Source: a virus
Lineage: Duplodnaviria > Caudoviricetes
Strand: one strand, 5' to 3'
DNA length: 64,000 nt
IMG/VR virus record: IMGVR_UViG_3300020049_016712
Coordinates: 1 to 64,000 of that record
The notes under the pieces are model-generated. The model saw nothing but the letters and a program-made list of their open reading frames with translations. It ran no database searches and was not told the origin of the DNA. The position numbers were made by a program, and so were the translations under genes. Shown here piece after piece: positions 9-56,100 of the stretch. The stretch's first letter is position 1. Each line of letters begins with the position of its first letter.

Positions 9-158
9 TATGTTACGCCTTTCGGAAGGGCTTTGTGGTTCCGGACATGGGCGGAAATTGGATATGCCTTGCCGATGGGCTTGGTGGATCTGACAAAGTA
101 AAGTCTAACGCCTAGGGATGCGCAGATACGCCGTTCGGAGCGGTTTGATGGCTCCGCC
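9..158 (+). CRISPR. Degenerate 3-repeat mini-array (type V-M-like repeats); may continue left of the window
   Basis: Units gttac-GCCT-ttcggaa-GGGC-tttgtggttcc-GGAC (12-46), gatat-GCCT-tgccgat-GGGC-ttggtggatc-TGAC (61-94), gatac-GCCG-ttcggag-CGGT-ttgatggctc-CGCC (125-158). Same architecture as the units at 2030-2192. Confidence 0.6.
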
Positions 159-2029: not shown

Positions 2030-2192
2030 GTCGGGATTGCCAAGCCTTCCCGCCAGGCATATCTCGGTCTCCAACACATCTCTGGTCTTGTCGCATCCAC
2101 AAGGCCTATGCGCAAGGCATCTCCGGTCGCTTTGGTCTTGTCGAGCGAGTATACCGTCGAACAAACGAAGCCGGCCCGAACGGCGTGTCCTA
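2030..2192 (-). CRISPR. Degenerate 3-repeat mini-array directly upstream of the Cas12m-like gene
   Basis: Minus strand: gacac-GCCG-ttcgggc-CGGC-ttcgtttgtt-CGAC (2189-2156), gagat-GCCT-tgcgcat-AGGC-cttgtggatg-CGAC (2123-2090), gatat-GCCT-ggcggga-AGGC-ttggcaatcc-CGAC (2063-2030). Compensatory stem change; spacers ~29 and ~23 nt. Confidence 0.65.
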
Positions 2193-9510: not shown

Positions 9511-10611
9511 TTATTCAGCCTCGGTCTTTGGCTTGCGCGGCCCAAATACTTTGATGTGCGATTTGCGCTTCGGCTTGCGATACCGAGCCACCAGGTCGGG
9601 ACGCTCGCGCTCCAACGTCTCGACATCGACATCCTCGACAACGCGTGTCGTGATGTATGGCTTTACCGCGTCCGGTTCGGAATTCAGGGCCGCTGACAGG
9701 TCGAAAACGGTTTCCTTTTCGTTGGTCCAGACAATCGAATAGGGTCCGGCAACCGTCTTTGGTTCACCGCGCGTCGCATCCTCGAGTTGAGGCTTTACCG
9801 CGTTTTTCTCGCCCTTCCAGTAGACCTCTTGCTGTTGAGCTTCGTGATATTTCTCGGCCAACTCGGTTAAGGAATCATCGCGCACGGCTTCGGCCTTGTC
9901 ATGCAAATACTTGAATTTGCAGAACGGAGAGGAAACGTCGCAGGGTGGCCGCTGGTCTGGATCGGACATGGCCATGCCCTCGATTAGCGCAACACGAGCC
10001 GGAGGGTCGCCAATCGGAAACGGGAGTCCAGGAAGGGCTTTGATGAAAAATTCTCCATCGTTGCGGTTCTTTAAGCCCCACACAACGCCCTTGACCTCGA
10101 TTCCATAGCAGGCTTGAATCAGCGCCGAGTAAGTCGTGACCTGAAAGGCGTAAGCATGCTCGGCCCTAACCAGTGCTTCCCAGCCTTTGGTCAGTGCTCG
10201 TTTCAGCGTCTTGAAGGTGGAATAGGTGTCGGTTTCACCAGCAGTCTTGGCTTCGACCAACCACCAATTTCCGTCATCGTCTACCGCGATTCCGTCCACC
10301 TCGCCAACGATTTCGGCATAGTCGCCAATCCGCATGGCCAAACAGGATGGTCTCGGAAGAAGGCGATAACCGTGCCGCTCAACTTCAGCCAGGATGGAAT
10401 CCTCATGGAGGTGACCCTCAGCAAGGATTCGCTGGTTGCGTTCCGAGCGCACCATAGGCTCATACCCGGTGCGCTCAGCCAAAAGGGCCCGAAGGCAGGA
10501 CCCAAGCGACGAGGGACGATAACGCCAGATTCCGCTTTGCAAACGGTGCACTGAGCGCGCGTCCGGGTCGCGAGGCTCCAAACCTTCGGGCAACTTCGGT
10601 GCGGGCAGCAT
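9511..10611 (-). CDS. PD-(D/E)xK exonuclease (Cas4/YqaJ-like)
   Basis: RPSSLGSC, GHLHE, GEVDGI, LVEAKT, QVTTY. Confidence 0.75.
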   Translation of the reverse strand: MLPAPKLPEGLEPRDPDARSVHRLQSGIWRYRPSSLGSCLRALLAERTGYEPMVRSERNQRILAEGHLHEDSILAEVERHGYRLLPRPSCLAMRIGDYAEIVGEVDGIAVDDDGNWWLVEAKTAGETDTYSTFKTLKRALTKGWEALVRAEHAYAFQVTTYSALIQACYGIEVKGVVWGLKNRNDGEFFIKALPGLPFPIGDPPARVALIEGMAMSDPDQRPPCDVSSPFCKFKYLHDKAEAVRDDSLTELAEKYHEAQQQEVYWKGEKNAVKPQLEDATRGEPKTVAGPYSIVWTNEKETVFDLSAALNSEPDAVKPYITTRVVEDVDVETLERERPDLVARYRKPKRKSHIKVFGPRKPKTEAE

Positions 10612-11381
10612 TACCCGAGACTCGCCTTGAGTTCGTTGTAATGCGCCTCTTTGGTGGCCGCCTGAATTGCAGCAGCATTGGTCCGCACTGACGGCGAATT
10701 GAGACAGGCCGTGCGCCAGGATGCGAAATCAGACGTGGTCGCAACCAGTCCGAGCATTTCGGCAGCCACATCATCGGGCACACCGTTGCCGGCCGGAGCA
10801 GCCGAAGATCCATTCGCAGGAGTCGTCGTTGCGGTCTGAGCGGAGCCCTGAGCGGGAGCCTGCTGTTGATGCGACTTGTCGCCGATCCAGCCGATGAACT
10901 TGGCGGGAGCGGCCATCGTGCGCTTCTCTCCACCCTTGATTTTATACTCTACGGGCTTGAGTTGGACGATGGCCCCGCGCCAAATCTCGGCGTCCCGAGT
11001 GTCGTGACGACCGTTTTTCCGCAACTCGGACATCAGGCCGCACTCTGCCGAGTTTTTGATCCATTTGCCGTACAGCGAACCGCCGGTGGGACCGCGCTTG
11101 TCGTCGTTGGGATCCATGATGATTCGGCCGTTGTGCTGAATCACGAAACCATCGCCCACCGTGAATTTCTCTTTGCGAGGCTGGTCGGTGTGGTAGTCGT
11201 ATCCCTCGGCCATGAACTGGATGACGTTGTGTCCCACAGACTCGGAATAATCGGCGATCCCGAAGTGCGGATTCTCGATCACCAGCGTGTAACTGGAAAA
11301 GTCGTTCTCGGGCGGATTCCACAGAGCCTGTGCCTGCTCTTCCGACACCTGGAACAATGGGGTATAGGTGTTTGCTGCCAT
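10611..11381 (-). CDS. Hypothetical, possible ssDNA-binding/recombination protein
   Basis: Position in the recombination module; A/Q-rich linker. Confidence 0.5.
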   Translation of the reverse strand: MAANTYTPLFQVSEEQAQALWNPPENDFSSYTLVIENPHFGIADYSESVGHNVIQFMAEGYDYHTDQPRKEKFTVGDGFVIQHNGRIIMDPNDDKRGPTGGSLYGKWIKNSAECGLMSELRKNGRHDTRDAEIWRGAIVQLKPVEYKIKGGEKRTMAAPAKFIGWIGDKSHQQQAPAQGSAQTATTTPANGSSAAPAGNGVPDDVAAEMLGLVATTSDFASWRTACLNSPSVRTNAAAIQAATKEAHYNELKASLG

Positions 11382-11636: not shown

Positions 11637-12170
11637 TTAGTTCTGTTTTTCTTGAATCTTTCCTTCCCTGTTTCTGAAGATTTTTCGATTGATTTTTATC
11701 CAATTGCTTGAATCAAATTCTTCTCCGCGCTCGTTTACGATCTCGTGTGATCTCCTGAAATCTCTGTAGTCGCGCCCCAGGATATTGAGCCAGTCGACGA
11801 ATTCAAAAGCGTATTTTTCGGCTTCTTCGTGATGGTCGTGAGCCTCCGTCAAAGTGCAAGCTCGAGTCTGATAATCGCCTTCTGCCTGAAACCTGTCGTA
11901 ATCCCAAAGCCAGCCAACGGTTCCGTCGTCGTCCAAAAAACCTGTTTGTCCGGGCAGAATCATCGTCTCGAAAACCACTGGTGTTCCATTTAGAATGTAG
12001 GAGTGATCGAGTCCTAGAAATACGGTCGAGATTCTGCAGACCCTGAAAACCCCAATCCACAACTCGGTCAGTGCGATGCTTTCGCGTTGAATTTTCCCAA
12101 CGGCTTCGCGGTGCACGAAAATTTTCCTAACGTTGCCGCATTCATCCAGTGCGAAACATTCCATGCTCAT
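11637..12170 (-). CDS. Hypothetical phage protein
   Basis: ISTVFLGLDH...FETMI motif; coupled start. Confidence 0.6.
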   Translation of the reverse strand: MSMECFALDECGNVRKIFVHREAVGKIQRESIALTELWIGVFRVCRISTVFLGLDHSYILNGTPVVFETMILPGQTGFLDDDGTVGWLWDYDRFQAEGDYQTRACTLTEAHDHHEEAEKYAFEFVDWLNILGRDYRDFRRSHEIVNERGEEFDSSNWIKINRKIFRNREGKIQEKQN

Positions 12171-12430
12171 GTCAGCCTCCTGTTGGGCAATATGGTTACC
12201 AGAACAGGTAGTTTACCAGATTCTGATTTCTCCACCACGAAACGCAGGCGCAGCGGACGCGGACCCTGCCAGAGCCACGCCCCCGACTTGAATTGCTTAA
12301 CTTTTTTGGCCTCTTTAGTCAGGTTAATCAGCTCCCCCAGGGCTTGCTCATAGGTCAACCCGCGAGCCCACCGCTCGCGATAGCGACGCACGGCGTGAGG
12401 TGTCACGAATAATGGTCCAGACGCGCTCAA
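12167..12430 (-). CDS. Small basic protein, RelE/BECR-like RNase candidate
   Basis: VTPHAVRRYRER, terminal VLVTIL; coupled to cysH. Confidence 0.5.
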   Translation of the reverse strand: MSASGPLFVTPHAVRRYRERWARGLTYEQALGELINLTKEAKKVKQFKSGAWLWQGPRPLRLRFVVEKSESGKLPVLVTILPNRRLT

Positions 12431-13179
12431 GAGCAGGCCTCCCGAGCCATCATATCAAGTTCGCGTAGGCGGTCCCGATAGTAGAGACCCTCCCACTCGG
12501 CTCGGCCGTGGCCTGTTCCCCGACCGCCGGCCAGGCCAGCCACCCGGAGCCTATCGCGGTCCCAAATCCCCCCCTGAGTGTATCCGTAAGCCGGGTGCAC
12601 GGGGAGGCTAAACTGCAGTAGGTAGGCAAAGACCTGGGCCGTAGACCAGCGGCCCAGAGGCGCCAACGTGTTGCGGGTGGCCAGGCCCTTCCCGACGCGT
12701 TTTCGCCTGGCGTTAGACTCCTCGGCCCGCACCCCGCTGGCATAGCGGGCCCCGAACCTGGTAGCAGCCTCGGAGAATCCGGCAGAGAGGCTGAGTCGGC
12801 CGGCAGGGGCCTGCCAGGTGCCGTCTGGCTGCGGGGCGCAGTGAGTCACCACTTCCTCGTATGGCATCGGGAAATCGGCCAGGAAGGCGTCTCGCACCAG
12901 TCGGCAATCGGGGTTGTCGCGAGGGTGGTTGCGAACCCAGACAAGCGGCGGCCCATTGTCGGCCCATAGCGTCCAACACAGGTGCGCCAGGACGATAGAG
13001 TCTTTCCCCCAGGAGCAGCCGATATAGTCCGGCCGGAACCGCCGCAGTTCCTCGCGAGCCGCGTACTGCAGCCGTTCCCAGTTGGTGGACCTGGCGACGA
13101 CCCGATCACGCCGACGTAGACGCTCCCACTCGGCCAGGTCGGCCTCCGTGTGGCGCTCGGTGACGATTAGCCCGGACAC
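12427..13179 (-). CDS. CysH/PAPS-reductase-like type IV-B ancillary protein
   Basis: GTG 13179 with GAGGA RBS; SWGKDS PP-loop, SGVRAEES..R, PLGRWST..V.AY, HPAY. Confidence 0.85.
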   Translation of the reverse strand: MSGLIVTERHTEADLAEWERLRRRDRVVARSTNWERLQYAAREELRRFRPDYIGCSWGKDSIVLAHLCWTLWADNGPPLVWVRNHPRDNPDCRLVRDAFLADFPMPYEEVVTHCAPQPDGTWQAPAGRLSLSAGFSEAATRFGARYASGVRAEESNARRKRVGKGLATRNTLAPLGRWSTAQVFAYLLQFSLPVHPAYGYTQGGIWDRDRLRVAGLAGGRGTGHGRAEWEGLYYRDRLRELDMMAREACS

Positions 13180-13805
13180 AGTACCAGTTCCTCGGTCGAC
13201 CGGCGCCAATAGGGGTAGGTGAGATTCCCGTAGCGGACATGGCTCTCGGTCACCCCTGGCCAGTCCGGGGGCAGGTGGCGCATTGCTCGACCGTCGGGAC
13301 TGACCACAGGGAATCCAGGCCATGGCTCGACCACCTCGAATTCCCAGCGTCGGATGCGACCGAGTCCGCAGGAACGCTTCCGGCCCAGGTGGTGGATCGC
13401 CGATAGGCGCCTGCGAACCTCGGCCAGATCGGCCAGCAGGAACCACGTTACCCGGTCCCAGGCCGCGTAGCCAACCTGATATGGTATTCGGAAATGCTTC
13501 TGCTTGCCTGCGGCCAGGTTCACGCGCTTCATTCGGCTGTGGTGAACGGCCTGCTCGACCGGGAAGCGGCGAATCAGATACTTCCGCTCGAGTAGCTCCC
13601 ACTCGACCACGGAAGCACTGGCCAGATGAAAACGCCCTCCCGGCTCGCGCTCGACTGGAACCTCGATTGGAACCAATTGGTCTTCAGTCGTAGCCAGCTC
13701 GATACCCTCCTGGACGCAAACCGCGTAGGCCAGCAATGCGTCGATATGGATCATGTCCATGGCCACGGGTCCCTGCAGGTAGGCTGTTGCCCTCAGTGGT
13801 TGCAT
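13167..13805 (-). CDS. csf3: Csf3 (type IV Cas5 group)
   Basis: IDALLA, LG.KRS.G.G.I..W, R.LP, YPYW. Confidence 0.85.
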   Translation of the reverse strand: MQPLRATAYLQGPVAMDMIHIDALLAYAVCVQEGIELATTEDQLVPIEVPVEREPGGRFHLASASVVEWELLERKYLIRRFPVEQAVHHSRMKRVNLAAGKQKHFRIPYQVGYAAWDRVTWFLLADLAEVRRRLSAIHHLGRKRSCGLGRIRRWEFEVVEPWPGFPVVSPDGRAMRHLPPDWPGVTESHVRYGNLTYPYWRRSTEELVLCPG

Positions 13806-14344
13806 AGCGGCTCCACCATCAGCATCCCAAACCCGTAAGGTTTGCCAGGTCCCAGACCGTCAATGAGGCAGCGCGCCAGTTCGGCCGGGTCGGTGCACTC
13901 GAGAATTCCGTGATAGTCCACCCCGGTGAACGTCAGGGGCAGCCCGTCTGGCTTACGGCCAACCGCCTTGGGCGCCATCCGCTTCCAGACCTCGCGAGCC
14001 ACCCATCCGAACTGGTGGCGCAGGAGCCAACCGGTCCAGTCTTTGTCGGGCACTCTCATCCCGTTTTTGCGGCCATCAGGGTGGACCTTCTTGGTGACGT
14101 TGGCGCGCAAGTGAAACAGGTAGCGCCGGCCGGCAGCGAGTTCCACCTCGACGGGTCGCGAATCCGGGCCGACAACCACTGGCGTTCGGACCCTGGCCAC
14201 CGGACCTTCAAGCCGATAGAGAAGCCTGGCCTCGGCCCGCTTCTGGGCTGGCACCAGGGTCTGCACCTGCCGGTGAATCGAGTCGCAGTCGTATCCCCGA
14301 ACCGGGAACAGTGTTTCCTGTAGGGTTAGAGTAAGCGCCCCCAT
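13793..14344 (-). CDS. cas6: Cas6e-like RAMP endoribonuclease (compact, 183 aa)
   Basis: IHRQV, LLYRLE, YLFHLRANVTKK, WLLR, VDYHGIL, G-rich loop GLGPGKPYGFGML. Confidence 0.8.
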   Translation of the reverse strand: MGALTLTLQETLFPVRGYDCDSIHRQVQTLVPAQKRAEARLLYRLEGPVARVRTPVVVGPDSRPVEVELAAGRRYLFHLRANVTKKVHPDGRKNGMRVPDKDWTGWLLRHQFGWVAREVWKRMAPKAVGRKPDGLPLTFTGVDYHGILECTDPAELARCLIDGLGPGKPYGFGMLMVEPLCNH

Positions 14345-15318
14345 CAGGCCACCACCTTGGCCAGAAACTCCCGAATCCGGTCCTTGCGCTCGGCGATATG
14401 GCGCCGAAACAGCTCGCCCTTGCGCTGGTCCGGTCCAACCAGGTCGAGGGTATCCATTCGCTCGCTGAAGTTGGCCAAGCTCACGTTGCGAGCGTCGATC
14501 GGCACCAGGTGGCCATGGCCAGTCCCCCGCTTGCCACCCACGCGGCAATGGCGCAGAAACGCACCCACCATGACCAGGAGTGTATCCTCGTCGAGCGGCG
14601 TGTAGAGAGTCGCTGTCACCGACCAAAAAAACAGGCTCCCTTGGGCCACGCGCTCATAATTAAAGGGCATCATAGTCGATTTGCTTTTGACGGCAGCCAC
14701 CGCGTCCCGTGATTCACCGGCCGTCTCGGAGTTTAACAGGCGCTGCTCGGCCCCAGCCCGCTCTCCGGGTATCAGGAGCAGGCGCTTGGCCGGGTCGAGG
14801 GTCGGGTCCATCCTGACCCGCTGCACAGGCTCGATGTGGGCTCGGCAGCCGTCGAGTTCGCCGGCGCCCTCCCGCGCCCACTCGGGCACCAGGTGCTCGG
14901 TTTCGCGGCAGACCAGAATAGCCGGGTCAACCTGCAGGCGCCCAGGTATAATCCTGTTTTGCGCACAGCCACCCAACAGACCCAGGGGCGGAATCAGTTC
15001 GGCGAGTTGGCGAAACTCGTCGAGGTTGACCGCACTCCCGCTTGAACCGGTGATCATCCCGCCCGCGAACAACAGGCGAAGAGCGTTCTCGGTCAAGCTG
15101 TCTTGCAGCATGTCGGCGCATTCTAGCAGGCAGTAGGTGCTCGCCTCGCGCAGACCGTGGCGCATCGTGTCTCCCGTCACGATAGGGACTTTGGCCCAAC
15201 GGCCGCAGGGTTGGCGAACCTTCTGGGTCATGATGATGCTGGTGTTGCCCAGATTTTCCTGAGCATGAGCGATTGGTGTTTCGGCTCTGAGCAAAAATTC
15301 AAACCGTTGCTGTTTCAT
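14344..15318 (-). CDS. csf2: Csf2 (type IV Cas7 backbone)
   Basis: TPIAH, VPIVTGDTMRHGLR, LFAGG, LLGGC, GRLQV, GGKRGTGHG. Confidence 0.9.
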   Translation of the reverse strand: MKQQRFEFLLRAETPIAHAQENLGNTSIIMTQKVRQPCGRWAKVPIVTGDTMRHGLREASTYCLLECADMLQDSLTENALRLLFAGGMITGSSGSAVNLDEFRQLAELIPPLGLLGGCAQNRIIPGRLQVDPAILVCRETEHLVPEWAREGAGELDGCRAHIEPVQRVRMDPTLDPAKRLLLIPGERAGAEQRLLNSETAGESRDAVAAVKSKSTMMPFNYERVAQGSLFFWSVTATLYTPLDEDTLLVMVGAFLRHCRVGGKRGTGHGHLVPIDARNVSLANFSERMDTLDLVGPDQRKGELFRRHIAERKDRIREFLAKVVA

Positions 15319-15721
15319 GCGATCCTCCAAGACCTTCTTCCAATGCTTCTGATTCGGTTAACTCCTGTTTTCGTTCTTTTGATTCCTGGGCCCGGAGTCG
15401 GCCCATGGCAATCAGGTAACTGTGTTCGTTCTCGACCAGGTCGAGCCATTCGTCGGGGGTGCAGACGTGGCCAACGGTCTCGGCCAGTTTGCTAATCACC
15501 AAAGAGCGTGAGTTGCTCGGGGCTGCCAAACCCAGCGACCGGCTCAGCGTCGTGACCCACTCGGCCACGCTGGTGCTCGTTCGGGCGGCCACCCGAATTC
15601 GGTCCTGGAGTTGGTCCCAGTGTTTGAGCGGATTGGCTCCGCTTGCCAGATACTCGCGTCGGACCTCCATGATCAGGTCCACTGTCCGGCCCTCTATCTC
15701 CTCTTTCTGATCGTTGCGCAT
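15299..15721 (-). CDS. cas11: Cas11-like small subunit
   Basis: ATG 15721 with AAAGGAGG RBS; all-helical; canonical position between csf1 and csf2. Confidence 0.75.
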   Translation of the reverse strand: MRNDQKEEIEGRTVDLIMEVRREYLASGANPLKHWDQLQDRIRVAARTSTSVAEWVTTLSRSLGLAAPSNSRSLVISKLAETVGHVCTPDEWLDLVENEHSYLIAMGRLRAQESKERKQELTESEALEEGLGGSHETATV

Positions 15722-16454
15722 CGCGCCTCCTTTCAAGTTCCACTTCGTCTCGTTGGGCTAGCCAGAGGCACAGGGCGAACCACCCACCTCCGCGCTCGCG
15801 AGCCCAGTAATGTTCGAACAGGCGAGCCCAGCGAGCAGTCTCCCCTGTCATGTAGGTCCTGGGCGAATAATCGCCGGTCTCTATCTCCGACTTGGTCACT
15901 CCCCCGCTGAGTCCGTCCACCATCGCGTCGAGCAACTCCCACGACCCCATTTCCACGTCGAGTTCCTCGAATCGCACCTGGCCCCATTGTCCGGGATTGA
16001 GGCGCGCGTAAGGAATGACGTGTTTTTGACCACTGTCGGCAATAGCGGCAAACCAGGGGGGAGTTTTCGGGCCACGCAGCCACTCCAGGATAGCTGGTTT
16101 GTCCCCTTTGTTGGCGGTGACGTATCCACGGCGGTCCCAGAGGTGCGAGTAAAGGCGCAGGTTTACCCCCCGTTTTCCTGGAGGCGGATCGGGGTGAAAT
16201 CCGGGAACAATCGTCCAGGAGTGAGCCCAGACGCAGGCCTCGCAGACGTGCTGTGATGCCGTGCACGAGACTTTGTTCTGGTCGGTGAAGCTCGAGCCTT
16301 GCCACTTGTCGAACAGCATACCTCTGGGCGCCACGCAAGCGCACATCCGACATAGTGAGTCCTCCAAAGGAGAACATCCAGCCTGAACTGGTGAGCCCGC
16401 CAGTTGGTGCAAAATCGCCGCCGGACTAACCGGTTTGGAAAAAGTTTCAATCAT
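15492..16454 (-). CDS. csf1: Csf1 (type IV Cas8-like) with overprinted C-terminal tail
   Basis: CRMC, SSFTD, CEAC, NK..K, IADSGQKH, LWLAQ; ends QLTLFGD. Confidence 0.85.
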   Translation of the reverse strand: MIETFSKPVSPAAILHQLAGSPVQAGCSPLEDSLCRMCACVAPRGMLFDKWQGSSFTDQNKVSCTASQHVCEACVWAHSWTIVPGFHPDPPPGKRGVNLRLYSHLWDRRGYVTANKGDKPAILEWLRGPKTPPWFAAIADSGQKHVIPYARLNPGQWGQVRFEELDVEMGSWELLDAMVDGLSGGVTKSEIETGDYSPRTYMTGETARWARLFEHYWARERGGGWFALCLWLAQRDEVELERRRDAQRSERGDRGPDSGPDHGGPTRVSGKRSQSAQTLGPTPGPNSGGRPNEHQRGRVGHDAEPVAGFGSPEQLTLFGD

Positions 16455-16665
16455 AATTCTTGTCGGCGCCTTCAGGAATGGATTTCAAGAAGTCATTATC
16501 GCGGCCTGGATGCAATTCAACGCTAAACCTCTTGGGCTTCGACCTGATCTTTTCGACCCGCAATAGTCCAGATTCGAGTCCTAATTTCTCGAGTTCGGCC
16601 GCGAAGGGGGCGATCAACGTCTTCCGAATCGCGGAAGGTCCTGCTAGAAAAACTTTCATCTTCAT
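16447..16665 (-). CDS. Small protein linking the helicase and csf1
   Basis: Start overlaps the helicase stop (ATGA); its end overlaps the csf1 start. Confidence 0.6.
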   Translation of the reverse strand: MKMKVFLAGPSAIRKTLIAPFAAELEKLGLESGLLRVEKIRSKPKRFSVELHPGRDNDFLKSIPEGADKNYD

Positions 16666-18410
16666 GGAACGATCTTTATTTCTCCTGTTTCGATAAGTCG
16701 GGTTAGCGGGTCGTCGAGGTAACCGCGCGGCAGAACGCGCGACTTGAACTCGACTGGAAAAATATTCTTGGTTCTGGGATTTCTCCAAAGTCGCTCAAAT
16801 TGCGAGTCGATCATGTAGGTCCAACACCAATCGTGGCCGCTTCTAGGGGCCCTCCCTGCCCCTTGAACCAGTTCGCGAATAGCCTGAACCTCAAACCAGT
16901 GTCGGCCATCGTAGTGGCCCGTTTCCGGGTCTTTGTAGGCGAAACGGGCTTTGATTTGCGGATCTCCAAGGTTGGGCCACGGAACTTTTGCCCAAATCTG
17001 AACACGGCAATCATCGTCCGGGAAGTCGTATCCGCGCGAAATCGATGACCCGAAAATGACCGAGGCAGAGTTCTTCCTGAACGCATCCAGGGCGCTATTT
17101 TTGGCAGCCTCGGTTTCGTAGGTCAAGCACATGCGTTCACTCAGGATCTGGCAAATCGTCGACTGCAACGAATGCGCCAGATCGTTGGAGACGCAATGCA
17201 CGACCGTCCGATACTGAGGATGTCGCATGAGAACCCACAAAACAGCAGCAACCAACGGTTCCCAGGCGTCTTGAATGAAATTCCCGCCATCGTCCCGAGC
17301 GTCCCAATCCTCTTTTTTGCGATTCTTCGTGACATTCACCGAGGAGATCCTGATAATGGGTGAACGACGCGCATCCCATGGCGCAGGAGCCTCAATCCAC
17401 TTGATTTTTGCGCCTTCAAGACCGACATCGCGAATCAACTGGTCGGGGTCGATGATGGTCGCGCTCATCAAGAGCATCGGGTATCTGTTTTTGATGAATC
17501 GCTTAGAGACAATGGACGGAACGACGGGCTTGAGCGTCACCGACCCATAAGACGAAACCGAGTAAATCCAGTCTGGTGTTACGTCCTTGAGCGAGGCATA
17601 AAGGCGGTCAGCGGATTGAGAGGCTTTCACTAGCGAGTCGGAAACGTCTTTTCCCTGCTCTGCTAACGTCTGCTTGAGATTGTCGCAACGCTCTTTTAGT
17701 GCAACCTCGAAGGCCGCAAGCCACTTCGGCCACCGCTCTTCGATGGGCTCGTCGGGCTTACTTCGCTTTGGCGGTTTACGATGCTCTTTCGGCAGATTGA
17801 CCATCGAGATCATCGATGACGAAATCGAGACCGTCAGCGCACCCATGAGGACGCCTTCTAGCGAGTCTGCCTCGTCGATGACCGTTAACGGTCGTCTCCA
17901 AAAAGGATTATCAAGTGGCCGCTTGTCTAGTCCTGTATACCGGATAGAGGCCAACCAGTACGCCGTGTTCAAGACCACCGGAGAGGATGAACCGTTTTCA
18001 ATCCGAGTGCGGGCCGTGTGGCGCACCTGGCGATACTCACATGGGCCGGACTGGCAATAATTCCCCTTCACGCATAACCCGCAATGAATGTCGGGATAGG
18101 CGTGCTTCATGTCCGGACAGGCGTAATTGGCCTGGCCTTGCACCACAATGGAATCAGGAAAATTGTCGCAAAACTGCTTCTGGAGCGGCTTGTGCGGGGG
18201 CGCGTAAACCAGCGTCAGACCAAGCCGCTGGGCAAGCATGTAGGCAACCAGCGATTTGCCGAAACCGGTCGAGGCCTGCAATACGATAACCTCGTACCCT
18301 TCCTCGATGGCCAGTTCCATCATGACCAGGACGTAATCCTGAGCCTCGCGGATGGACTCTACCCAATCTGGCACCATGACCGTGCCAAGCCCGGCCTGAA
18401 CTTCCTTCAT
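16662..18410 (-). CDS. DinG/XPD-family SF2 helicase with Fe-S cysteines
   Basis: ASTGFGKS, Cys cluster, IDEAD, LLMSAT, GYDFPDD.CR, QGAGRAPR. Confidence 0.9.
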   Translation of the reverse strand: MKEVQAGLGTVMVPDWVESIREAQDYVLVMMELAIEEGYEVIVLQASTGFGKSLVAYMLAQRLGLTLVYAPPHKPLQKQFCDNFPDSIVVQGQANYACPDMKHAYPDIHCGLCVKGNYCQSGPCEYRQVRHTARTRIENGSSSPVVLNTAYWLASIRYTGLDKRPLDNPFWRRPLTVIDEADSLEGVLMGALTVSISSSMISMVNLPKEHRKPPKRSKPDEPIEERWPKWLAAFEVALKERCDNLKQTLAEQGKDVSDSLVKASQSADRLYASLKDVTPDWIYSVSSYGSVTLKPVVPSIVSKRFIKNRYPMLLMSATIIDPDQLIRDVGLEGAKIKWIEAPAPWDARRSPIIRISSVNVTKNRKKEDWDARDDGGNFIQDAWEPLVAAVLWVLMRHPQYRTVVHCVSNDLAHSLQSTICQILSERMCLTYETEAAKNSALDAFRKNSASVIFGSSISRGYDFPDDDCRVQIWAKVPWPNLGDPQIKARFAYKDPETGHYDGRHWFEVQAIRELVQGAGRAPRSGHDWCWTYMIDSQFERLWRNPRTKNIFPVEFKSRVLPRGYLDDPLTRLIETGEIKIVP

Positions 18411-18474: not shown

Positions 18475-19218
18475 CTACTTTTTCGGCAATAATTTTCTAG
18501 CCTCTGCCAAAGCGTTCAGGCACCGTGTTCTCCATGGCTCCCGCTCGGCAATGAGGATGCGCTCCTGTTGCTCGATAAACTCCAACAATGCATCCCAATC
18601 CTCTTGAGCGACCAGGATGTTCGTCGTGGCCTCGAGGTCTTTCATGCAGTCAGCATGATACTGCGCCTCGGCGAACTTCTGTTGAGAGTATTCAATCGAG
18701 ATGAATCTAGGACTGCGCTTGATGCCGCCATCTTTGTCGAACCAGCGAATCCGCTGATAGAAAGCGTCACGACCGAAATCAGAATAGGTCTGATATTCCG
18801 AGCACTCGCGAACGATGGTTTCGATTTGCGACCTGAAAAATTCGGGAATCTTCAAGCTCGTGGTATGAGTGCGCCCCTGATATTTGTCGAACCGGTAAAC
18901 GCGCTCAGGAGAAAATTCGTCTTGCTCCGTCTCATGCGGGGTCCACAACACATTCGTGAGGGGGCCAGGACTGTGGTTGATTCCGCTGCCCGGCGGGAGC
19001 GGGGGAATCGGAGGAGGTAAAGCCAAGTCTTCAATGTCCTTTCCTGGTCTATTTCGTCTGCGGACCTGAGATCTTCGACGCGACCGCTTGAATCCTTTCC
19101 CATGTTCCGGGTTTTCCGCGTGAAGTTTTTTCCATGATTCGAGCACGGTTTCGGAGGGAGTTCGAGGCGGCGACGGAGAACTTTCCCAGAAAAAACGTAC
19201 AGTACTGAAGTACCTCAA
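18475..19218 (-). CDS. Hypothetical DNA-binding protein with ribbon-helix-helix-like segment
   Basis: TTSLKIPEFFRSQIETIV...YSDFGRDA; next to the origin-like repeats; start uncertain. Confidence 0.5.
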   Translation of the reverse strand: MRYFSTVRFFWESSPSPPRTPSETVLESWKKLHAENPEHGKGFKRSRRRSQVRRRNRPGKDIEDLALPPPIPPLPPGSGINHSPGPLTNVLWTPHETEQDEFSPERVYRFDKYQGRTHTTSLKIPEFFRSQIETIVRECSEYQTYSDFGRDAFYQRIRWFDKDGGIKRSPRFISIEYSQQKFAEAQYHADCMKDLEATTNILVAQEDWDALLEFIEQQERILIAEREPWRTRCLNALAEARKLLPKK

Positions 19219-19545
19219 CTGCTCAGTACATGAAGTAATTCAGTACATGAAGGTACTCAGTACCTCAGTACACTCATGAACTCAGTACTCTCATGTACTG
19301 TACGATCCATGAGACTCATGAGATTCAGGTACTCAGTACATGAAGGTACTCAGTACTCATGCAATCGTCGGTATACGGTATTACCGTATCGGTGATACCT
19401 CCAAGAGCCAGAATACGGTAATACGCTAATACAAAACTACGGTATTATATAGGCTAAATTTGTAGTGTTGCACAACGTTTTGTACCCAGAGGCTAGAATA
19501 CGATAACACGGTAATACGCTAATACGAGAATACCGTATTATAAGG
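19197..19545. repeat. Iteron-like repeat block, putative replication origin
   Basis: 15 GTAC in 19197-19356 and 8 CATG in 19229-19361; direct repeats cagtacatgaaggtactcagtac (19241, 19334) and acggtaatacgctaatac (19415, 19508). Confidence 0.7.
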
Positions 19546-36039: not shown

Positions 36040-37170
36040 CTAGAAACACCCCTGATCCGACCATCCGAGGTCATATTGTTCCTGCCCGTATCCCAACTGT
36101 TTGTATTTGTAGCAGAAGGCGCAACTGTAGGCCATATCTGGATCTCCATCGATACATGCTCCATCATTGAATGGACCATCGCCGCATTCTCCACCATAGG
36201 TTTCGTCGAATGACGTGTATTTGTCGTTGCTCAGGAAGCAGTCGTCGATTCCCGCGAAATAGTCGGAGTCCTCGGCCTGAGAAACCGCATCGTTCCATCC
36301 CTCGATAGCACCATTATAAGCAGTTGCATAAGCCTCGGAATAGGCTGAAGTATAGGCGTCGCAGTAGCACTGATCCTCGTCGGTGGTTACCGAGATGGGG
36401 CAAATTGGATCGTATCGAGAACCGGTTCCACCGTCCACGCCTTCTGCGTCCAGTCCATCCAGGAATCCGTCTTCTGCACCGGCAGCCGTTCCGTCTTCGA
36501 TGCCGGTGGCCGCGCGCTCGGCACAGGATTGCGGTATCGATGGGCAACTTGAGTCGTTGGTGCCCGTGGTTACCACCATGACCGACGATGTTTTCAGGCC
36601 GACGGTGATGGCTAGCGGTTCTGACTCGCAGGCCATCGAAACCGTGTCGGTAGTTGAAAGATTTTCCTGGATCACACTATTCCCGGAGGCTCGATACAGG
36701 TATGGCCCGTATCCGCGCAATAGTTGAATTCCAGAACCTGTTGAAACCGTTTCCAGAATATCCGCCAGGGTGAAATCGTAAGTGGAACAGTTCGAGAACT
36801 GAGAATCGTTACAGGGCCTGTCGTCGCCAATGTAATAGGCAGAACCGCCGCGCAGGCGCAGCCAGGCAGAGCACAGGTATTCGGCAAACTGGTCTCCAGA
36901 CGGAAACGGAGAATCTCCGGTCTTGATGGACTCGTCTCGGAAAATGGCAGTAGCCTTGTGCTTGGACCTGCTCGGATATAGAATCTGGATGGTTTGTCCG
37001 ACGAAATCGGACGGATTGCCGCGCCCTCCAGGAGTGGCCAGAAACGGTTCTGGACGCCCCGAGGCCCGCATAACGCACATTCCGTCTGGCCGCACCTCCT
37101 CGAGAACGGCAAACTCATAGAGCGGCCTACGCGCGACCAGACGCTGTGCAATACGTTCTCGCGATCCCAT
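36040..37170 (-). CDS. Minor tail protein with acidic Cys-rich C-terminus
   Basis: Tail module position. Confidence 0.55.
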   Translation of the reverse strand: MGSRERIAQRLVARRPLYEFAVLEEVRPDGMCVMRASGRPEPFLATPGGRGNPSDFVGQTIQILYPSRSKHKATAIFRDESIKTGDSPFPSGDQFAEYLCSAWLRLRGGSAYYIGDDRPCNDSQFSNCSTYDFTLADILETVSTGSGIQLLRGYGPYLYRASGNSVIQENLSTTDTVSMACESEPLAITVGLKTSSVMVVTTGTNDSSCPSIPQSCAERAATGIEDGTAAGAEDGFLDGLDAEGVDGGTGSRYDPICPISVTTDEDQCYCDAYTSAYSEAYATAYNGAIEGWNDAVSQAEDSDYFAGIDDCFLSNDKYTSFDETYGGECGDGPFNDGACIDGDPDMAYSCAFCYKYKQLGYGQEQYDLGWSDQGCF

Positions 37171-56022: not shown

Positions 56023-56100
56023 CAGGCTTTACCTGTTCTGTTCGGAGCAAACGAAACGAACCAGTCTTGGCTTCGCAGGTGACGCAAGCGAAGCGATTGC
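56023..56100 (-). ncRNA. Putative solitary repeat-spacer small RNA antisense to early leaders
   Basis: 7-bp stem GCTTCGC/GCGAAGC, then CAAGAC, then TGGTTCGTTTCGTTTGCTCCG, then the terminator. Confidence 0.5.

Follow-up and report, generated by a model that had tools for sequence, protein, structure and literature searches.

An uncultured tailed phage of Vulcanimicrobiota carries a type IV-B CRISPR-Cas cassette with its own Cas6e behind a DinG-family helicase gene

To our knowledge, type IV-B is the least understood of the CRISPR-Cas subtypes, and neither its RNA cargo nor the role of its CysH-like protein is known. The locus presented here raises the question of whether a IV-B operon that holds a Cas6 gene and overlaps an upstream dinG gene is a hybrid of types IV-A and IV-B. 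It lies in the window, which is the whole stretch of DNA that was analyzed, namely the first 64 kb of the 86,005-bp IMG/VR virus record IMGVR_UViG_3300020049_016712 (estimated completeness 89%). The phage resembles a siphovirus, as it encodes a tape-measure protein, a head protease-capsid fusion, an HNH endonuclease and a Cas4/RecE-like exonuclease, and the minus strand holds the majority of the window genes. Judged only by how its genes adjoin and overlap, the locus looked like a new hybrid subtype; the comparative context points to an insertion beside a phage helicase. This uncultured tailed phage of Vulcanimicrobiota carries a type IV-B cassette with its own Cas6e, and we give a probability of about 70% to the reading that the locus is a mobile 4.2-kb IV-B cassette (csf1, cas11, csf2, cas6e, csf3, cysH-like and orf87) of a small phage-borne sublineage, and that its IV-A-like look is a juxtaposition and not a IV-A/IV-B hybrid.

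The genes of the locus overlap one another on the minus strand and are read from 18410 to 12167 in the following order:

16662-18410, minus strand: DinG-family helicase, 582 amino acids (Helicase_C_2, 3.1e-21; PADLOC DinG profile, 1.4e-43)
16447-16665, minus strand: open reading frame (ORF) of 72 amino acids bridging dinG and csf1 and overlapping both neighbors
15492-16454, minus strand: csf1, 320 amino acids (PADLOC Csf1, 8e-22), its tail overprinted on cas11
15299-15721, minus strand: cas11 small subunit, 140 amino acids (PADLOC Cas11_0_IV, 4e-9, 1-113 of 114 profile positions)
14344-15318, minus strand: csf2 (Cas7), 324 amino acids (PADLOC, 6e-46)
13793-14344, minus strand: compact Cas6e-like endoribonuclease (by homology), 183 amino acids (PF08798, 5.5e-21; TIGR01907)
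13167-13805, minus strand: csf3 (Cas5), 212 amino acids (PADLOC Csf3_0_IV, 1.6e-28)
12427-13179, minus strand: CysH-like PP-loop protein, about 250 amino acids (PAPS_reduct PF01507, 24.7 bits against a cut-off of 22.5)
12167-12430, minus strand: orf87, 87 amino acids, conserved, after the cysH-like gene (tblastn matches in 12 related IV-B loci)

A sequence-only reading of this DNA had described the first eight of these genes as a string overlapping on one strand, and this was confirmed by the profiles and by reading the junctions. The dinG stop and the start of the 72-amino acid ORF (orf72) have an ATGA in common, the csf1 ATG lies 8 nucleotides (nt) ahead of the orf72 stop and the csf2 stop overlaps the cas6 start by 1 nt. 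No terminator-like site was found on the minus strand from 18410 to 12167, and the single promoter-like site inside it is weak. The same reading had placed one operator and leader upstream of dinG, for which a consensus scan gave no confirmation. For orf72, neither a family (Pfam, PADLOC and NCBIfam) nor a homologue turned up, and the NCBIfam matches to Csf1, Csf2 and Csf3 fall under their equivalog cut-offs. The start of the CysH-like protein was adopted from the gene call of a metagenome-assembled genome (MAG); further support for this protein comes from NF002537 (5e-5) and from the PP-loop SWGKDS, which is visible in the translation. The product of orf87 belongs to no known family and is a candidate additional component of the IV-B family; orf87 is the ninth conserved gene and it belongs to the cassette. 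About 1 kb upstream of dinG, at 19220-19540, iteron-like tandem repeats with 17-nt and 8-nt units are found, and they probably represent the origin of replication or a regulatory part of the early module.

The locus holds the csf1, csf2 and csf3 core of type IV-B together with cas11 and an adjacent cysH-like gene, and no CRISPR array was found anywhere in the 86-kb genome, in agreement with the earlier observation that no canonical array adjoins the operon. Type IV-B is also characterized by the lack of Cas6, whereas a conserved Cas6e is present here, and we file the locus as a IV-B variant, like the 12 exceptions described in PMC7038947. The description of the operon as a type IV-B module with its own Cas6 was therefore borne out, given cas11, the cysH-like gene, the array-free locus and a genuine, selected RAMP of the Cas6e type. 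Csf2 has at least 670 metagenomic relatives, and for those with 47%-74% identity csf1, cas11, csf3 and a PAPS-reductase-like gene adjoin in every examined context, mostly on phage-like contigs; the position of the cysH-like gene after csf3 is also conserved in the relatives. A blastn search of the operon against phage and plasmid collections gave no match.

The reference for type IV-B is the Csf complex encoded on a Mycobacterium sp. JS623 plasmid (PMC7937560; reviews PMC8175902 and PMC7038947). It has in common with our locus the identical five families and their order, the absence of arrays and adaptation genes and the location on a mobile element. In contrast, the cassette described here is phage-borne in an uncultured phylum, has Cas6e between csf2 and csf3 and a conserved orf87, and its Csf1 tail, overprinted on cas11, carries a clamp-type motif. 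IV-B loci with Cas6 are rare exceptions, 12 of which were counted by Pinilla-Redondo et al. 2020 (PMC7038947). They share the IV-B core and a Cas6-family gene with our locus, but the paper gives a count only, whereas here a compact Cas6e clade occupies one fixed position in one Csf2 subclade. Another relevant case is the atypical IV-B of Fuxivirus of the Bathyarchaeia viruses (PMC10848311), which is likewise virus-borne, has cas genes matched by a host spacer and occurs with a Cas4-like nuclease elsewhere in the virus. Yet, the Fuxivirus locus has a mini-array and no Cas6, while ours has Cas6e and no adjoining array. The locus is a rare but recurrent IV-B variant, and the combination of IV-B with Cas6 is itself already known.

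Is the Cas6-like gene a real Cas6, and does it belong to the cassette? The protein scores 76.2 bits with PF08798 (cut-off 25) and 55.5 bits with TIGR01907 (cut-off 45.2). In the alignment with T. thermophilus Cse3, its His24 falls on the catalytic His26, and the C-terminal glycine-rich loop is kept (GLGPGKPYGFG aligned to GVGPGKALGLG of Cse3). The AlphaFold2 model (predicted local distance difference test, pLDDT, 92.2; predicted template modeling score, pTM, 0.87) has a RAMP fold with two RNA recognition motif domains, of which the N-terminal one is shortened, and its best Foldseek matches are E. coli CasE and T. thermophilus Cse3 (TM 0.69-0.78). The possibility that this ORF is no RAMP, which had been raised earlier, was thus looked at and found to disagree with a Cas6e fold in which the histidine and the loop are kept. 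An exhaustive search returned a tiny clade of compact relatives (179-183 amino acids), followed by a fall to ordinary Cas6e. Every member of this clade lies between csf2 and csf3 of a IV-B cassette (loci L013/L014, L015, L099 and L100), which places Cas6e at the identical position in five independent loci. In the Csf2 tree, which was drawn without IV-A, C, D or E reference sequences, these five loci form one subclade with one nested locus that lacks Cas6e, and one gain and one loss of the gene fits best with the sequences. Pattern scans of viral and genome contigs for Cas6e alone found nothing.

A different Cas6-domain gene was seen in three distant phage IV-B loci (L005:7935-8888, L007:6003-6968 and L009:7959-8924). 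It encodes a 317-321-amino acid protein with a C-terminal Cas6 domain (PADLOC 3e-7 to 3e-9), lies just upstream of csf1 and differs from the compact Cas6e. As this is a second, distinct gene, RNA-processing RAMPs have joined phage IV-B loci more than once. The csf1 of these three loci was missed by the gene callers and lies in an apparent 700-bp gap.

The extent of the cassette can be read from two Vulcanimicrobiota MAG contigs, L013 and L014, which hold a 4.2-kb copy of it:

12230-16425, no strand assigned: mobile block in common with L013/L014, 91% identical in nucleotides, free of indels, 62% GC

The shared block runs from 29 nt inside csf1 to orf87, and its GC content of 0.62 stands against 0.54-0.55 in the flanks. 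Upstream of the block, L013 and L014 encode an aminotransferase and glycosyltransferases, and dinG is absent. Between the phage and MAG copies, cas6 has 27 synonymous and 2 non-synonymous differences, i.e., a ratio of non-synonymous to synonymous substitution rates (dN/dS) of 0.02; the other cassette genes have values of 0.03-0.18 (cas11 0.12, orf87 0.15). From the sequence comparison and the structural model, Cas6e is integral to the cassette, is under strong purifying selection and is apparently an active endoribonuclease. All seven cassette genes are intact in the phage. A functionless, decaying passenger might be expected to look recently acquired and to have no array, as is the case here, but seven intact genes with dN/dS of 0.02-0.18 against the MAG copy make such a passenger very improbable.

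The second part of the question concerns the helicase. It carries GFGKS (Walker A) and IDEAD (DEAD-type) motifs, and four cysteines at the Fe-S position (C113, C116, C119 and C124) are conserved across its clade. CasDinG, the type IV-A helicase, lacks the four Fe-S cysteines and has a vestigial Fe-S domain (PMC10450177). When the clade profile was compared with the PDB, archaeal XPD scored 88 bits and E. coli DinG 65 bits against 32 bits for the helicase of the IV-A3 complex (8s35_M), and FANCJ likewise ranked far above the IV-A complex helicase. The NCBIfam matches are to YoaA and DinG only, and Csf4 profiles match at 5e-4 and 7e-3 only. The PADLOC model "typeIV_DinG" gives 147 bits here and 188-243 bits for relatives from the helicase family that lacked csf genes in 80 viral loci; we rejected this label as evidence for a CasDinG, given the higher scores of these relatives.

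The genomic neighborhood of related helicases tells the same. The only close homologue (40%) is found on phage contig L016, in which a small ORF comes next, ahead of homologues of the window gene at 10611-11381 (39%) and of the exonuclease at 9511-10611 (44%); csf genes were not found in this module. The latter two genes come after the cassette in our phage and after DinG in L016, and therefore the cassette looks inserted into a conserved helicase-exonuclease module. Among 80 IMG/VR loci with related helicases, of which 54 have at least 5 kb downstream (median 8 kb), no csf, cas6 or cysH gene was found by tblastn with all cassette proteins and by a Csf2 hidden Markov model, while the exonuclease is kept downstream in 9 loci and an AAA_24 gene in 13. 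A pattern scan of viral contigs for DinG alone found nothing. By these sequence comparisons, DinG is a resident phage Fe-S helicase of the XPD/DinG type for replication or recombination, outside the mobile cassette. The claim that DinG is a part of the system that makes it a IV-A/IV-B hybrid thus fails on the mobility of the cassette without dinG, the synteny with L016, the 80 loci, the cysteines and the profiles, and the caveat attached to it, that the helicase may just be a phage replication gene, is supported by the same evidence; a lack of linkage between this DinG and csf genes, which had been named among the grounds for refuting the hybrid, is what was seen in the related viral loci (0 of 80 with csf).

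Compared with type IV-A3, our locus is similar in having a Cas6e-type enzyme beside Csf2 and Csf3 and a DinG-family gene adjoining the operon. Type IV-A, however, comes with an array, and its CasDinG accompanies the csf genes, whereas here cas11 and the cysH-like gene are present, the locus is array-free and the XPD-like Fe-S helicase does not travel with the cassette. In a published scenario the IV-A lineage lost cas11 (PMC7038947), and no cysH-like gene is described for IV-A (PMC8175902). The cassette sits behind the phage's own helicase, and therefore its IV-A-like look is read as a juxtaposition. A probable course of events is that the compact Cas6e became an integral gene of a small phage-borne IV-B sublineage, whose cassette would have been inserted between the phage helicase and the exonuclease and AAA_24 genes that normally come after it. 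In the phage the cassette has no promoter region of its own and is translationally chained to the dinG-orf72 message.

Another feature of the cassette that bears on its relation to the helicase is the tail of Csf1. The protein ends with PEQLTLFGD, in which QLTLF corresponds to residues 314-318 of 320, and its last ~77 residues, which form a disordered tail, overprint cas11. The tail varies in sequence, and QL[ST]LFGD or a close variant ends Csf1 in every relative. In the MAG, the csf1 tail is interrupted by TGA where the window has AGA (15695-15693). The long Csf1 of the window was considered as the result of a lost stop codon, and this was rejected: its 320 amino acids lie within the family norm of 309-337 and the MAG TGA is derived. 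A beta-clamp-binding peptide of the QL[SD]LF type is indicated by the C-terminal pentapeptide, the flexible tail and a predicted fit to the pocket. When Csf1 276-320 was modeled together with two host DnaN chains, residues 310-318 were placed in the clamp pocket, with a score of 0.77 against 0.00 for the best of three controls. Of 78 solved complexes, 51 reached that mark, as did 2 of 108 mismatched pairs, and the Csf1-DnaN runs had a contact agreement of at least 34% and a partner pLDDT of at least 44. Many clamp-peptide complexes are already solved, and for that reason the result may show likeness to such complexes, not binding. In the open-access literature we found no paper linking Csf1 to the clamp.

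Several points weigh against this reading or limit it. The dinG, orf72 and csf1 genes overlap without a separating terminator or strong promoter, and therefore co-expression with DinG is likely; on sequence grounds the cassette is probably co-expressed with the helicase. The best PADLOC model of the helicase carries a label associated with IV-A, the other Cas6e-bearing loci sit on short contigs so that their wider context is not visible, the proposed mechanism rests on homology, and the helicase was compared with CasDinG by profiles, cysteines and gene neighborhoods. One option, which we consider improbable, is a true functional hybrid, in which the phage DinG was co-opted after the insertion as a partner of the Csf complex, re-enacting the presumed origin of IV-A. 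Capture of DinG by a IV-B-like ancestor was indeed proposed as that origin (PMC7038947). The translational chaining of dinG, orf72 and csf1 without an internal terminator and the loss of the cassette's own upstream region would agree with it, and the clamp motif of Csf1 would put the complex at replication forks, which is the workplace of a 5'-3' helicase. Yet, purifying selection maintains the cassette in the MAG copies and in L099, where DinG is missing, the DinG clade never adjoins csf genes elsewhere, the helicase is of the Fe-S XPD type, unlike CasDinG, and this is the single known instance. It is equally doubtful that the phage was caught with a Cas6e-bearing IV-B cassette in the act of capturing a helicase, with a clamp-held Csf complex working with the XPD-like DinG; if true, the helicase capture here would repeat, independently, the step from which type IV-A is presumed to have arisen. 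We keep to the resident helicase and the inserted cassette.

If Cas6e is active, the next question is which RNA it cuts. The window has the following candidates, together with a type V effector gene:

414-1975/2102, minus strand: Cas12u1/Cas12m-like gene, homologous to a MAG protein of 560 amino acids (66% nucleotide identity)
2030-2192, minus strand: three degenerate hairpin repeats upstream of the cas12m-like gene, candidate Cas6e substrate
9-158, plus strand: second set of three degenerate repeats from this family, oppositely oriented, at the contig end

In the MAG, the homologous Cas12u1/Cas12m-like gene (PADLOC 4.6e-108) is located 2.5 kb downstream of the cassette and is flanked by arrays with a 36-nt repeat, a 74-76 nt spacing and a 3' hairpin whose stem covaries. 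By sequence, the degenerate repeats of the phage are relatives of this true Cas12m-type array. The phage copies are degenerate, with spacers of 14-29 nt, and none of the spacers, from the MAG array or the phage mini-arrays, significantly matches the phage. A covariance model built on this family places repeats only at 9-158 and 2030-2192; it gave no further copy near the operon and solely a weak match in a coding region (36820-36865), no Rfam family was found in the window at the gathering threshold, and no arrays were found near other IV-B loci. As the repeat set at 9-158 abuts the contig end, an array may be truncated at this point. A related IV-B phage contig also has, between genes, a single hairpin that resembles the repeats and is assigned to their family by the covariance model (L010:4662-4697, E 2e-5); on this contig no Cas6 or cas12 is in view and DnaN is encoded 1.3 kb downstream of the cassette. 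Of the RNAs that had been proposed for Cas6, the degenerate arrays hold up, as relatives of a Cas12m array and a candidate substrate, and the solitary hairpin at 56 kb does not. This hairpin folds (z -2.3) and adjoins a terminator, and we rejected it as a specific Cas6e substrate, as the covariance model finds no likeness to the repeat family.

One tentative possibility is that Cas6e processes the hairpin repeats flanking the cas12m-like gene and that the IV-B complex shares its guide RNAs with a type V-M effector. The cassette co-occurs with the Cas12m-like gene and the repeat family in both long contexts, 2-4 kb away from it in the MAG, where the array is a real one, and 10 kb away in the phage, and the repeat stems covary. 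A IV-B locus also stands beside an inactivated V-B3 variant with a mini-array on an Actinomyces plasmid (PMC12669027, Extended Data Fig. 7). In both cases a mobile element brings together a IV-B cassette, a mini-array and a small type V effector, but the type V partner here is Cas12m/V-U1-like, and both are known from co-location alone. Against shared guides, Cas12m was reported to mature its own pre-CRISPR RNA without a trans-activating RNA (PMC11013384), the hairpin is at the 3' end of the repeat, where a cut at the stem base leaves a 5' handle of ~2 nt, and L100 has no array or cas12 gene across 5.5 kb downstream; the degeneracy and short spacers of the phage copies also speak against it. 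Because of the reported self-processing and a hairpin that leaves almost no 5' handle, a role of Cas6e on the Cas12m-type repeats is not required, and we regard it as possible with rather low odds.

A pattern search with the repeat led to the host. The site that it matched, in a 9.5-Mb Vulcanimicrobiota MAG (G001), turned out to be a spacer and not a repeat, and it belongs to a large array:

G001:C13:80704-94455 (L103-L105) and G001:C11:1-8887 (L115): type I-G locus and array

The array has 185 repeats and 184 spacers, and 17 of the spacers match the phage, at sites that include 15460-15497 (csf1/cas11), 17959-17988 (dinG), 18518-18554 and 56044-56081. The last of these, in the 56-kb hairpin region, is a protospacer of 38 nt without a mismatch. 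The array also holds spacers against the cassette-bearing island of the MAG, and one against the repeat of the Cas12m array itself. Type I-G cas genes, encoding Cas4-Cas1g, a Cas3g-Cas8g fusion, Cas5/6g and Cas7g, adjoin the continuation of the array. These spacer matches identify the host phylum as Vulcanimicrobiota. No Csf2, Cas6e-family or Cas12m-like match was found in G001, a genome that is incomplete, so that absence is not proven. In the other direction, a spacer of the MAG Cas12m array (L013:17740-17779) matches 34 of 40 nt at L115:9093-9132, which is an ORF of ~60 amino acids at a distance of 206 bp upstream of the host cas7g. The match has TTT on its 5' side, and of its six mismatches four are synonymous ones at third codon positions. 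This spacer may serve a mobile element in silencing the host I-G operon. The spacer matches suggest that the host system and the cassette-bearing mobile elements target each other.

Such a conflict raises another hypothesis, that of a counter-defense sponge, in which Cas6e and the Csf proteins capture the precursor or mature CRISPR RNA (crRNA) of the host I-G system and blunt its targeting. This idea was published for IV-B (PMC7038947 and PMC8175902), spacers of the host array target the phage (17 of them) and, in other cases, the cassette, and the host repeat folds as an 8-bp stem with a tetraloop, a shape that resembles Cas6e substrates. However, a Cas6e is usually specific to the repeat of its own system, the RNA bound by the solved IV-B complex was heterogeneous and not the co-expressed crRNA (PMC7937560), and the CysH-like gene and the clamp motif are left unexplained by what is so far an inference; we find a sponge unlikely.

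The mechanism that we propose for the inserted cassette is based on homology. Cas6e would cut a hairpin RNA and remain bound to it, and Csf2, Cas11, Csf3 and Csf1 would assemble on the bound RNA. The C-terminal QLTLF peptide of Csf1 would then dock the complex on the sliding clamp of the host, and the CysH-like PP-loop enzyme may act on the nucleic acid bound to the complex. The cassette would serve the phage in its conflict with a host that targets it heavily through a type I-G system.

The unusual context of this locus consists of the host phylum, a I-G array that targets both the phage and the cassette, a co-travelling Cas12m-like array and a family-wide clamp tail on Csf1. This tail suggests that replicating DNA is the site of action. 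If a IV-B lineage retains a Cas6e that is selected and apparently active, a defined hairpin RNA would be implied, and the locus is a well-contextualized natural system for asking which RNA type IV-B uses.

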